Below, in pieces: positions 36,001 to 39,000 of a stretch of 64,000 bases of DNA (the stretch's first letter is position 1; every line of letters begins with the position of its first letter). This DNA comes from an uncultured Planctomycetota bacterium. GTDB lineage: Bacteria; Planctomycetota; Planctomycetia; Gemmatales; Gemmataceae. The position numbers are program-made. Where the stretch lies: positions 782,285 to 846,284 of the forward strand of contig CAWKHF010000006.1 in assembly GCA_963849325.1 (NCBI GenBank), in the 5' to 3' direction.

Positions 36001-39000
36001 GAACTCAGAACTCAGAACTCAGAAAATGGCAAAGGCGCCGTTGATTATCCTGGCCGGGCCGAGCGGCAGCGGCAAGTCCACCATCATTGCCCGTCTGCTC
36101 CAGGACGGACGACTGCCGTTGCGGCTGTCGGTGTCGGCCACCACCCGCCGGCCGCGCCCCTATGAGCGCGACGGCGTTCATTACTGGTTCTGGACGCCCG
36201 AGCAGTTTCAGAAGCAGTTGCAGGCCGGCGCCTTCCTCGAATGGGCCGAGGTGAACGGACAGCGATACGGCACCTTGCGCTGCGAAGTGGACGCCTACCG
36301 GAACAAGGGCGTCGGCGTCCTGCTGGACATCGACGTACAGGGGGCCGCCCAGGTGCGGGCGCGCTATCCCGATTGCCTTTCCCTTTTCCTGCGAACGTCG
36401 TCGTGGGAGGTGTATGAGCAGCGTCTGCGGAAGCGCGGCACGGAAACCGAGGAGCAAATCGCTCGCCGGTTGGCCACGGCCCAGCGCGAGCTGGAACGAA
36501 TCCACGAGTTCGATCACGTGATTGTCAATGACGATCTGGACTCCGCGGTCTGTCAGGTCCGCGGCCTGATCGCACAGGCTTTTCCGAAAGGGAATGGCAA
36601 TGCTGGATGAACTGAAGGAAGAGGCCATCGTCAACAAGGTGGGTGGCCGTTTCAAGCTGTCGACGCTGATCCAGAAGCGGATGGTGGCGCTGAACACCGG
36701 CGCTCGGCCGCTGGTCGAAGTGCGCGGCGGCGACAAGATGGCCATCGTCATTCAAGAAATCTTGCAGGACAAGATTTATCTGGACACGTCGGGTCAGGTG
36801 CAAGCGCGTGGCGTTAGCGCCAGCGACGCCGCCCGCCGGGCCATGCTCGGCGACATCTCCGCCGACCTCGGCGGCGACTGAAGCCAGATCGAAGGGGGAC
36901 GTCATGGCCGAAGCAACCGACCGTCCGCGGGGCGCCGCCGGGGCGACCCCCGCCCCGGGGCTGGGGACAACCGCGCCCGAACCGTATCGCCCGTTGTCGC
37001 TGCTGGCCCTGGTCGCCTTCGCGGGGGCGGTCGTCTACGCCCTGATCGTGGCGGCGGGCGCCGTGGTTGCCCTGTTCAATCGGATACCCTGGTTGATGCC
37101 GGGCTGGTCCTTTCTCTTGCCCATCCTCGTTCTGGTCCTTTGCTGGGTGGCCCGCGCACGCATCCGCGGCTCCGAGGGAACGCTGGGCGGCCTGGCCTTC
37201 ACCGCCTGGGGCGTGCGCCTGACCGTCGTGGTCGGACTCACCTACGCCGCCTATTACGGCTTCACCTTTTTCGCCGTGAGCTTGCAGGCCAAGGACTGCG
37301 CCAACCAGTTCTTCGACCAGCTCAAGCAGGGCCACACGGAACGCGCCTTTCTGCTCGGCATGGACGTCGCCGCCAAGGACATTGACGACGCCGACCTGCG
37401 CAATACGCTGGAGTTCCGCTTTAACTCCCCCACCGGCCCCGGCGGCTCCGGCGGCGCCTTCACCACGTTCCGGCAAAGCCCCCTCGTCCGCGCCATCGAG
37501 TCCGGCGGCGGCGCCACGCGCATCGCGCCGTTGGGTGTCAGCGATTGGAGTTACCAGCAGGGCGGCTACCGCGTCCTCCTCAAGTACGAGGTGTCCACGC
37601 CCCTGATGGCCGTCGAGATGGCGGTGGAGACGTTCGGTCGCGACAGCAAGACCGGCGGCCGGCAATGGCAGGTCATGCTCAACCGAGGCGACACGCGCCT
37701 CATCCCCGAGACCATGAAACTCACCCCGGCGGGGGCGGAGTGGATGCAAAAGGCGATGTTGGCCCAGAATTTTGCTTCCACCTGGCAGGACAAGGTCAAT
37801 CAACGTCTCTGGACGGACGTGTATCTGGATACCCTCAAGCCCTCCCAGCGCGAGCGGTTGCACAAGGGCCGGCAGGTGCTGCGCGTGCTGCCGGCGGTGT
37901 CGCTGGCCGGCCTGGCTCCGCTGGGTCTGTGGGACCAATCCTGTCTCGAACTTCTGGATGGCTCGCGGAAGCTCGCCGAGGGCAAGCTGATCCGCATCGA
38001 CGACAAAACCTTCTGGACCAGCAAGCTCGAGCGCAAGGCTATCCTGGCGAACCTCCAGCAGACCTTTCACCCTCGATCCGACGGCAAGGCCCGCTTCACC
38101 CTCCAGCTTCAGAAGACGCAGATGCCGCCGTCGCGCACGGCCGGGGATGAGTTGACTTTCCTCCTCGACGCCGTTCTGACGTACCTGGACGAGACCGGAT
38201 CGCGGCCCAAGTATCTCGTCCAGGCCCAGGTCGCCGTGACGGCGGAGCAAAACGAGGCCGATCGTTCTCCGTCGGCCTGGCGCATTGAGGCCATCGAGAT
38301 CAGCAGCGGCCGCACGCCGCCGGAGCCGCCACAGAAAGGGCGCCTGGGAGGCTGAGCAGGAAGAAGGGTCATGCCCCCTCCCTCCGGTGCTTCCCAGCGA
38401 TAACTTGACGGCGCCACCGGCTGCCGTAAACTGCTAGTGCCCAGACAAGCGAGTTCCCGTCCGAGCCGGAAACGGAAGCGAAGGAAGACGGACGAAAGAG
38501 CGAAACCACGGCCAAGTGGCGGAATTGGCAGACGCGCTGGACTTCATCATCGTTGCATGATCGGTGCAGCAAAATCCAGTGCCCGCAAGGGCGTGTGGGT
38601 TCGAGTCCCACCTTGGCCACCTTAACTTCTTTACTAGTAAGTACTTGTGATGACAGCGGATGACTAACTTCCCGCGAGAGAGAGGGTTGCGTCAACTGCT
38701 GTCCTCCGCAGTCCGTCGAGGCTGCCCCGAGCGTGCAGCCCCAGGCGATAGTCGCCGGTGGGCGTCTCCAGCAGGCCGCTCCGCGCTTGCGGTAGCAGAC
38801 GCGGCACCAGCAGCCGGCCATCCCGGAGAGCCGCCTGCGGTTCGCGGTCCGGAGCCAGCAGCATGTCAACTAGGCCCGAGGCAGCGAGAGACTCGACATC
38901 GAGTAAGAGTCTGTCCCGGAAGCCCCTCTCCCCCTGTACTCCGGGGGAGAGGGGTTGGGGTGAGGGGGTGTGCTTTCCGCCGGTTTCTCCCCCTCACCCC

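Follow-up and report, generated by a model that had tools for sequence, protein, structure and literature searches.

In the protein-spliced tRNA introns of Archaea and Eukarya, whose removal relies on EndA/TSEN and RtcB-archease, the bulge-helix-bulge motif places both junctions in 3-nt bulges that flank a 4-bp helix. The natural role of the bacterial RtcB ligase is still debated; RtcB is prone to turn excised RNA into circles. In the IRE1/RtcB pathway, a dedicated endonuclease reads small stem-loops, and the mammalian intron measures 26 nt. The intervening sequences of bacterial rRNA genes are excised by RNase III and the cut ends are not religated. Group I introns, for their part, are built around a catalytic core (P3-P9) of about 100 nt or more. 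The accessible parts of two studies give group I as the only kind of tRNA intron described in bacteria (PMC4033280; 10.1101/2020.01.27.920355), and the titles and abstract openings of the literature searched hold no report of a short, non-group I intron in a bacterial tRNA.

The gene considered here is a class II tRNA-Leu(CAA) gene of an uncultured planctomycete of the family Gemmataceae. It occupies positions 38510-38621 (+ strand) of the window, the 64,000-nucleotide stretch of DNA that was analysed, and includes a 26-nt insert at the U33/C34 boundary (38544..38569, +; C6:820828-820853 on the contig). ARAGORN does not call a tRNA-Leu(CAA) gene at 38510-38621 at its default settings; when introns are permitted, it reports tRNA-Leu(caa) there with a 26-nt intron ("ggact-Intron-caaaa"). 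Because default tRNA finders overlook such a gene, genomes that carry it appear to be devoid of tRNA-Leu(CAA). The Rfam tRNA model matches 38510-38619 (+) with 48.9 bits (E 1.5e-8; gathering score 29); all 71 model positions are filled, and the 29 unaligned bases all fall in the anticodon loop. By both programs, the 5' exon (38510..38543, +) comprises the acceptor 5' strand, the D arm, the 5' strand of the anticodon stem, C32 and U33. The 3' exon (38570..38621, +) opens with the anticodon CAA, A37, A38, the 3' strand of the anticodon stem and the long variable arm, and continues with the T arm, the acceptor 3' strand, the discriminator A and CC. The gene encodes a 110-nt precursor whose body is still able to adopt the cloverleaf. 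Within the insert, pairing and conservation delineate a hairpin (38546..38561, +) with a 5-6 bp stem, ATCAT(C)/(G)ATGAT, and a hypervariable loop of 4-6 nt; conservation also defines a single-stranded 8-nt tail (38562..38569, +; consensus A-N-G-T-G-C-A-G) that runs up to the 3' junction. The insert is single-copy, as the genome-wide survey's note had stated: the 8.16 Mb genome holds no further copy with five or fewer mismatches, the next-best 26-mers lying 6 mismatches away. A guide RNA function was considered and rejected, the longest complement in genome G000 being 15 nt, which is the chance level.

A sigma-70-type promoter precedes the gene (38405..38432, +), with -35 TTGACG, a spacer of 16-17 nt and -10 TAAACT; the promoter scan returned this one site against 0.1 expected. 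The TTGAC/TAnACT pair is aligned in 14 of 15 orthologous loci, insert-bearing and insert-free alike. Further upstream, a block of genes (34899..38355, +), identified by Pfam and synteny, serves as an orthology marker for the tRNA locus. It consists of genes for a YicC-like endoribonuclease (34899-35933, +) and a guanylate kinase (36026-36610, +), both recognized by Pfam matches, and for a 515-aa protein of unassigned function (36808-38355, +). The block lies in identical order 5' of the tRNA gene in 10 of 10 genus loci, and tblastn locates the 515-aa protein at all eight genus loci searched, with 39-52% identity. The flanks had been described as unalignable; this is true of the intergenic leaders but not of the promoter or of the syntenic upstream genes. 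YicC, 2.6 kb upstream, was examined as a nuclease linked to the insert and discarded. Its proximity to the tRNA gene is no evidence, because the synteny extends to insert-free genomes and because the family is near-universal in bacteria, according to the accessible part of one report (10.64898/2026.03.25.714237).

Among 11 genomes of the genus, 10 have the orthologous, syntenic tRNA-Leu(CAA) gene; no orthologue was found in the remaining one, G006, which is 64% complete. The gene is interrupted in G000, G001, G002, G005 and G010, in agreement with the five insert-bearing genomes counted earlier, and uninterrupted (...CT|CAAAA...) in five others (G003, G004, G007, G008 and G009), rather than in three species; in G008 and G009 the uninterrupted gene has different anticodon stems. 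Alignment shows that the absence of the insert is base-exact in all five of these orthologues, and comparison with them revealed no direct repeat, microhomology or target duplication at the junctions. Contrary to the earlier finding, the insert also occurs outside the genus, a single genome of a second genus (G102) carrying a 27-nt homologue. Searching metagenomes with the exons as anchors and a free gap of 10-40 nt between them yielded 51 loci; 10 are tRNA genes, on 10 contigs each carrying the insert at 26 nt, and 41 are unrelated (32 of them one identical sequence). Scanning 185,579 species genomes for the insert pattern, with a fixed loop length that misses the G102 version, gave 13 loci: three tRNA genes, each belonging to this genus, and 10 that represent a single conserved coding motif. 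The pattern has no match in viral contigs. With no second genome copy, no target duplication and no viral match, the footprint of a repeat, MITE or insertion sequence was rejected as a source of the insert. Presence and absence are patchy on the rpoB tree with outgroups and on the tree of the linked upstream block, which, as read from these trees, implies at least three to four precise gains or losses. Such repeated, base-exact loss or gain fits the behavior of an intron; it is also possible that allele exchange between species, through the identical exons, explains the patchiness without any splicing.

The constraint on the interrupted gene is severe. Over 10 distinct interrupted variants, no change is seen at 81 of the 84 exon positions, the 5' exon being constant save for one D-loop T/C and the 3' exon save for two loop positions of the variable arm. 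All 10 distinct variants of the genus clade have an insert of 26 nt, with 14 of 26 positions invariant; in the tail of the insert G21, G23 and C24 never vary, and the tail is unaltered in G102 despite a different anticodon stem. Any two insert-bearing genomes are separated by 0-3 differences in the 84 exon positions and by 1-3 in the 22 non-loop positions of the insert, as against 22-36% of rpoB third codon positions; non-loop insert positions are about fourfold slower to change than the latter. The loop differs at 0-3 of 4 positions, which bears out the claim that substitutions cluster there. Taken together, these comparisons provide good support for purifying selection on the exons, the promoter and the non-loop insert, and the view of the insert as maintained stands, its length being constant as well. 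The survey's caveat that the gene may be dead can largely be set aside, given the exon invariance, the promoter kept in 14 of 15 loci and the slow change of the insert; by the same data, the relaxed constraint of a tRNA pseudogene is absent, and that candidate was rejected. One could picture instead a tolerated scar, slowly decaying in a dispensable gene: the footprint of an integrase or transposon, or what is left of a larger intron. Integration is known to target anticodon loops, an integrase adjoins a tRNA-like gene elsewhere in the family (in G223), and other tRNAs may serve UUG. However, a decaying scar is hard to square with exons and non-loop insert so much more conserved than rpoB third positions, next to leaders that are unalignable, or with the kept promoter, the constant length in 10 variants, the single genome copy and the lack of target duplication. 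The conservation data bring this explanation close to refuted, and we regard it as improbable.

The anticodon region is preserved as well: the anticodon CAA, A37, A38 and the anticodon stem are intact in 11 of 11 variants. The anticodon stem of G102 differs from that of the genus by two pairs changed on both sides, C-G to G-C and U-A to A-U. These compensatory changes leave the 3' end of the insert as it was, so that the alternative helix proposed in the survey's note, between the 5' strand of the anticodon stem and the 3' end of the insert, is lost in this genome. That fold also fails to covary, two metagenome variants disrupt it, and we have abandoned it; the energy models do not separate it from the cloverleaf. 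Only one helix would bridge the junctions (columns 28-33 with 55-60); it contains a fixed G-G mismatch, does not covary, is 80% paired and retains 3 of 6 pairs in G102. No bulge-helix-bulge motif is present at the insert; the 3' junction lies 5 unpaired exon bases away from the cloverleaf stem. As for the hairpin within the insert, 95% of cells are paired, four of six pairs never vary and one changes from C-G to U-G; folded alone, the insert yields -3.6 to -6.1 kcal/mol. Because compensatory double changes number zero, the case for the hairpin comes from conservation.

Could the insert remove itself? It might be released by RNA catalysis, or by cleavage that the structure of the tRNA scaffold assists, with sealing by RtcB or by the reverse reaction. 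The boundaries invite the thought, as all 11 variants have U33 before the 5' junction and 10 of the 11 end the insert in G, resembling group I boundary rules (U at -1 paired with G in P1, and a terminal G), and stem and tail are conserved in sequence as well as in structure. But every known self-splicing core is far longer than 26 nt, no ribozyme family matches at E up to 1 (Rfam Intron_gpI gives no match in the interval 36000-41000 at that threshold, and no RNA family besides tRNA matches the insert region), the candidate P1-like helix is not conserved, the base that would pair with U33 being G, A or C depending on the variant, and in one variant the terminal G is replaced by A. The earlier verdict that an insert of this size falls far short of a group I intron is upheld, and self-removal strikes us as very unlikely. 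Slightly fainter still is the prospect that selection acts on DNA, the palindrome being a protein-binding or recombination site inside the tRNA gene. The stem is conserved as sequence around a free center, in the manner of operator or recombinase core sites, and in G010 the hairpin site is a perfect 16-bp palindrome. Against this, the arms are just 6 bp, the genome shows no enrichment of the motif (four sites against about 0.8 expected, the other sites lacking the tail and forming no family), the conserved 8-nt tail is asymmetric, and the tolerance of the tRNA for the insert would be left unexplained.

The main rival to splicing is of another sort. The insert may never be removed, the product being a tRNA-like RNA that is chargeable by LeuRS but does not decode, and that might, for example, supply leucine to a non-ribosomal transferase or work as a decoy or regulator, while tRNA-Leu(UAA) or an array tRNA reads UUG. 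LeuRS does not read the anticodon, and the strong constraint seen in the acceptor, D, T and variable arms is also what a role limited to aminoacylation would lead one to expect. The absence of EndA from the five insert genomes (see below) is in line with this idea. So is the presence of other potential readers of UUG: a short-arm tRNA-Leu(CAA) occurs in the tRNA array of three of the five insert genomes (G000, G005 and G010; also in two of the five with the uninterrupted gene), and tRNA-Leu(UAA) is present in G001. These alternative readers could equally count against the splicing hypothesis. The survey's suggestion that the array copy replaces the interrupted gene fails for G001 and G002, in which no second tRNA-Leu(CAA) was found among 41 and 42 tRNA genes, respectively. 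Non-decoding derivatives do arise in the family, as G119 and G223 show. Their Leu-like class II tRNA-like genes carry non-Leu "anticodons" and enclose the whole anticodon region in a long covarying hairpin; they were rejected as relatives of the present gene, not being tRNA-Leu(CAA) orthologues and resembling the insert in size and position alone. Against an unspliced RNA stand the intact CAA, A37, A38 and anticodon stem in 11 variants, the compensatory change in G102, the positional orthology of the gene with what is, under the same promoter, an ordinary decoder in sister species, and the base-exact loss that restores a perfect tRNA-Leu(CAA). Nor does it sit easily with G001 and G002 or with the weight of the codon: UUG makes up 12.7% of Leu codons in G000 (13.8 per 1000 in 1664 long ORFs). 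On balance, we consider the unspliced RNA doubtful, yet a serious competitor.

The reading that we favor, at about an even chance, is that of a maintained intervening sequence in a housekeeping tRNA-Leu(CAA), excised by one or more nucleases and sealed by RtcB. Both the status of the insert as an intervening sequence and its removal from the RNA we infer from DNA comparisons. In this scenario, one or two protein endonucleases would cut at U33|insert and insert|C34, guided by the sequences at the junctions and by the conserved stem of the hairpin rather than by a bulge-helix-bulge. The tRNA body would hold the halves together until sealing, most likely by the stand-alone RtcB encoded in the genus, together with archease. 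The product would be an ordinary 84-nt tRNA reading UUG, with the exon junction ...GGACU|CAAAAUCC..., and the insert could be lost through a spliced copy or through allele exchange with the identical exons as homology arms. In favor of the splicing hypothesis, the interrupted gene is under the same constraint as its intact orthologues, the insert is itself constrained, the anticodon stem stays paired around it, its presence and absence are base-exact and patchy, UUG is in common use, G001 and G002 have no spare tRNA-Leu(CAA) among the tRNA genes found, and RtcB with archease is a suitable ligase module. The survey's report of RtcB holds for 10 of the 11 genus genomes (PF01139), the exception being the insert genome G010 (78% complete), in which it was not found; archease (PF01951) is encoded in five of five genomes tested. 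In G000, rtcB is split across three frames, possibly as a result of assembly indels; this and the lack of a match in G010 count against the hypothesis. The gene stands alone amid unrelated neighbors (a mechanosensitive channel and a tRNA_edit-receiver fusion, no nuclease), outside any RtcR/RtcA repair operon.

Other observations weigh against the splicing hypothesis. The hairpin shows no compensatory double changes, the bulge-helix-bulge is absent, no gene that follows the insert was found, and there is no candidate for the endonuclease: as the survey had noted, the EndA/Sen family (PF01974) is missing from all five insert-bearing genomes, while the control search was positive in four archaea. 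Nor does the ligase module track the insert, for RtcB and archease occur equally in insert-free relatives and were rejected as insert-tracking genes; KptA is found in one of five genomes, and among these three enzymes none follows the insert. Each genome has such an insert in a single gene, for which dedicated machinery would moreover be costly. A second interrupted tRNA of G000 (C1:476146-476235, 90 nt) does not belong to a general system, because it is restricted to that genome and lacks U33. It is nevertheless tempting to speculate that the Gemmataceae possess a protein-based form of tRNA splicing new to all domains, with a nuclease unrelated to EndA that recognizes the hairpin and junctions and cuts at 33/34, and with RtcB-archease resealing the ends; we hold this fuller version to be plausible though short of an even chance.

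If the insert is spliced out by proteins, this would be the first non-group I tRNA intron in Bacteria and the first housekeeping splicing substrate of a bacterial RtcB. It would supply RtcB-archease with a physiological substrate, point to a new class of tRNA endonuclease and bear on the long-standing question of whether only Archaea and Eukarya have protein-dependent tRNA splicing. If it is not, the locus offers a natural case in which a decoder tRNA has become an RNA that does not decode but can probably be charged. Known RNAs of the latter type, such as the tRNA-like domains of bacterial Y RNAs as described in the accessible part of one study (PMC4201824), share a tRNA body and a modified anticodon region with the present gene, which, however, retains an intact anticodon with its stem and loop flanks and is orthologous to a normal decoder. 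The protein-spliced introns of Archaea and Eukarya are similar in being short, core-less insertions in the anticodon loop of a pre-tRNA that contain a hairpin, evolve faster than the exons and are precisely lost in relatives, and RtcB and archease are encoded here as well. Here, in contrast, the host is a bacterium, the site is 33/34 instead of 37/38, one gene per genome is affected, the bulge-helix-bulge is lacking, and no EndA-family gene was found in the five insert genomes. The IRE1/RtcB splicing of XBP1/HAC1 mRNA offers a parallel in its very short intron and RtcB sealing; it is eukaryotic, acts on mRNA and cuts within each loop of twin stem-loops, a twin structure not seen in the present insert. 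Bacterial rRNA intervening sequences are likewise small, hairpin-forming and sporadic insertions in stable-RNA genes, but they sit at helix tips, form long duplexes in place of a 6-bp stem and are not followed by ligation, whereas here sealing would be required because a nick at 33/34 would inactivate the tRNA. Group I introns, finally, also interrupt bacterial tRNA genes in the anticodon loop, are patchy among relatives and, like the present gene, have U ahead of the 5' junction and a final G (the latter in 10 of the 11 variants here); they differ in measuring hundreds of nucleotides instead of 26 and in possessing the P3-P9 core, for which the insert has no counterpart and no Rfam match, and the P1-like pairing of the insert is not conserved. 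The conservation of the insert suggests a kind of tRNA splicing undescribed in bacteria, and a selected 26-nt insert at 33/34 is out of line with the tRNA introns described in this domain.

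The Rfam tRNA model matches the tRNA-Leu gene at window positions 38510-38619 (+) from end to end, scoring 48.9 bits where the gathering score is 29; in the anticodon loop, 29 bases stay unaligned. At its default settings ARAGORN misses this gene, its sole call in the window being a tRNA-Arg; once introns are allowed, the program calls a class II tRNA-Leu(CAA) whose acceptor stem has 7 bp, whose variable arm is long and whose discriminator is A, and places an "intron" of 26 nt (38544-38569, +) between ...GGACT and CAAAA.... The insert that the genome-wide survey's note placed in the anticodon loop, between U33 and C34, is thus confirmed by both programs and by a genus alignment, and is extended here to metagenome variants and to a further genome, G102.

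When the gene was used as a query against all 11 genomes of the genus, the insert was found in G001, G002, G005 and G010 besides the genome that holds the window (G000; 8.16 Mb, 14 contigs, 65% G+C). The gene is uninterrupted in G003, G004, G007, G008 and G009, C/T-T running straight into CAAAA at the identical site of the alignment; G006, which is 64% complete, gave a short D-arm match only. The ten loci are orthologous: the order YicC-like gene, guanylate kinase, ~500-aa gene upstream of the tRNA is the same in all of them (10/10); the downstream neighbourhood is not conserved. A scan of metagenome contigs with an exon-anchored pattern and a free gap of 10-40 nt returned 51 loci: 41 were unrelated and 10 were interrupted tRNA-Leu(CAA) genes, all with exactly 26 nt, contributing five additional sequence variants. 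A promoter (-35 TTGAC, -10 TAnACT, spacing 17 nt) aligns at 14 of 15 loci (10 genomes and 5 metagenome contigs), and the leader from there to the tRNA, about 10 to 90 nt long, allows no alignment across loci. With an insert-based pattern run on one genome per species (185,579 species), 13 loci were hit, and the three that are tRNA genes all lie in the genus. Three further scans covered 151 genomes of the family with a covariance model built from the interrupted gene, all 252 of the family with a D-loop/T-arm pattern, and the full order (267 genomes) with a tail/T-arm pattern. Between them they added a single genome, G102, from another genus, an assignment made uncertain by its fragmented assembly (1780 contigs, 5% contamination). 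Its 27-nt insert occupies the same site and is clearly homologous, the loop being longer by one base; the promoter is of the type seen in the genus and the upstream gene is different.

In an rpoB tree of the genus with four other genera as outgroups, G009 and G008, both without the insert, lie at the base, and the next to branch are G000 and G005, which have it. Within the two remaining clades insert-free genomes are nested among insert-bearing ones, G007 with G001 and G002, and G003 plus G004 with G010. These nestings are reproduced by a tree of 2.7 kb linked to the tRNA, and at least three to four base-exact gains or losses of the insert are required. Variation in the exons (D-loop T/C, variable-arm loop) and in the insert tracks the same clades, which favours vertical descent with precise losses. 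No repeat that could promote exact deletion was found at the junctions of the aligned genes. A precise loss could arise if spliced RNA were copied back into DNA or, alternatively, through interspecies allele exchange, with the identical 34- and 50-nt exons serving as homology arms.

The note had raised the possibility that the gene is dead. Among ten distinct interrupted genes, 81 of the 84 exon columns are invariant, as are 14 of the 26 insert columns. Pairwise comparison of insert genomes gives 22-36% difference at third codon positions of rpoB, with changes at 0-3 of 4 positions in the hairpin loop of the insert, 1-3 of 22 in the rest of the insert, and 0-3 of 84 in the exons. By this yardstick the loop drifts at about the silent rate, the insert outside the loop is some four times slower to change, and the exons are the slowest. 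These relative rates rule out a dead gene and show the insert itself to be under constraint.

UUG makes up 12.7% of the Leu codons of G000, ranking third among them, and UUA 1.1%. The only other CAA or UAA tRNA-Leu genes of this genome are a short-arm tRNA-Leu(CAA) and a tRNA-Leu(UAA), both within long tRNA arrays. There are three such arrays, all outside the window (C1:515629-516193, C4:433741-435175 and C12:838476-839555), and among their genes are class I-like, short-arm tRNA-Leu genes of 74 nt (CAA, UAA, CAG); related arrays in G005, G008, G009 and G010 pack as many as 16 genes into 3 kb. Long arrays of this kind were shown to be silent in a cyanobacterium except under translation stress (PMC8421152). 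The array CAA copy, previously considered as a substitute, is present in G000, G005 and G010, with the insert, and in G008 and G009, without it, and so does not track the insert. Full sets of tRNA-model matches were drawn up for two insert genomes. Among the 41 matches of G001 the interrupted gene is the sole CAA gene, and a canonical tRNA-Leu(UAA) is present; among the 42 of G002, an incomplete set since tRNA-Asn is also missing, it is again the sole CAA gene, and UAA is absent.

The insert forms a stem of 5-6 bp with a loop of 4-6 nt, followed by an 8-nt tail that runs to the 3' junction. Four of the six stem pairs never vary and one changes from C-G to U-G; the closing pair is lost in two variants and the outer pair in one. 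As the aligned variants contain no compensatory double change, it is conservation that speaks for this putative stem. The alternative fold proposed in the note, in which the 5' strand of the anticodon stem pairs with the 3' end of the insert, did not hold up: the helix has a fixed G-G mismatch, pairs at 80%, is broken in two variants and exhibits no covariation. In G102 two compensatory pairs of the anticodon stem are different and the tail of the insert has not changed; this leaves the alternative helix with 3 of 6 pairs and the cloverleaf stem perfect. Energy models do not discriminate between the two folds, and no arrangement sets both junctions in 3-nt bulges around a 4-bp helix, the bulge-helix-bulge geometry.

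Taken together, the insert is under selection and constrained in length, it has been gained or lost with precision, and the housekeeping tRNA gene that holds it keeps its promoter. The most economical reading, to which we give an even chance, is that of an intervening sequence that protein enzymes would excise from the precursor, the exon ends then being sealed by RtcB. EndA-family endonucleases (PF01974) were found in 0 of the 5 insert genomes, with control matches in 4 archaea. RtcB (PF01139) is encoded in 10 of the 11 genus genomes, archease (PF01951) in all 5 genomes tested, of which 3 have the insert and 2 lack it, and KptA (PF01885) in 1 of 5 tested. Because RtcB and archease are both encoded, an archaeal-type ligase module is available, yet it is not specific to insert genomes. 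The main rival, which we consider unlikely, is that the RNA stays unspliced, chargeable and non-decoding. The YicC-like endoribonuclease gene (34899-35933, +) is 2.6 kb upstream of the tRNA in a block syntenic in all ten genus loci. In a recent preprint the standard substrate for YicC is a hairpin RNA of 26 nt, and very small RNAs are suggested as natural targets (10.64898/2026.03.25.714237). This is probably a coincidence, since genomes with the insert and genomes lacking it both carry the gene.

The rtcB gene is flanked by a mechanosensitive-channel gene and a gene for an aminoacyl-tRNA editing domain-receiver domain fusion, and is not in a repair operon; in G001 and G007 the fusion gene, of YbaK type, is convergent to rtcB (L107:2894-3781, -; L111:553-1419, +). 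In G005 (L114/L119, G005:C378) and G009 (L116/L117, G009:C3) the first ~50 residues of RtcB lie ~1.5 kb from the rest within one ~1000-aa open frame, which looks like an intein. In G000 rtcB is in three frames, and the rpoB open frame has just 612 aa vs about 1260 aa in relatives (C10:46269-47539, C1:336926-338389). These splits are probably assembly indel errors, which may explain the completeness estimate of 84.7%.

Other tRNA-like genes were encountered. Leu-like class II examples in two other genera of the family, G119 (L244:1501-1609 = G119:C4:88336-88444, -) and G223 (L281:632-740 = G223:C257, -), have 33 bases (7 + 26) between the anticodon-stem strands, forming one ~19-20 bp hairpin; the two share the tip sequence and differ in several compensatory pairs. 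Their apparent anticodons are AGG and ACA, and they are extra genes, not tRNA-Leu(CAA) orthologues; the one in G223 adjoins a phage-type integrase. A tRNA-like gene of 90 nt in G000, outside the window (C1:476146-476235), scores 54 bits with the tRNA model. Its anticodon loop, 27 nt long, holds a small hairpin, U33 is missing, and of the 11 genus genomes G000 alone was found to have it. At 38931-39025, starting 310 nt beyond the 3' end of the tRNA, a G-rich/C-rich palindrome of 95 nt, almost perfect, attracts many spurious Rfam microRNA matches; because the genome holds 49 further occurrences of one arm at up to 4 mismatches, it belongs to a dispersed palindromic repeat family.

As for known kinds of element, a repeat or mobile element was rejected for the insert, which is unique in G000 and has no target duplication or viral match; so was a group I intron, given the 26-nt size and the lack of an Rfam match, and no obvious complementary RNA that might guide processing was found. 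We found no report of a short non-group-I bacterial tRNA intron in literature listings, whose coverage leaves out subscription journals. A preprint in which bacterial tRNA introns are mapped in 21 classes treats, in the first part of its main text, group I alone (10.1101/2020.01.27.920355). According to a review, bacterial tRNA genes are without structural diversity beyond group I and II introns, and the introns of bacterial tRNAs are self-splicing (PMC4033280).
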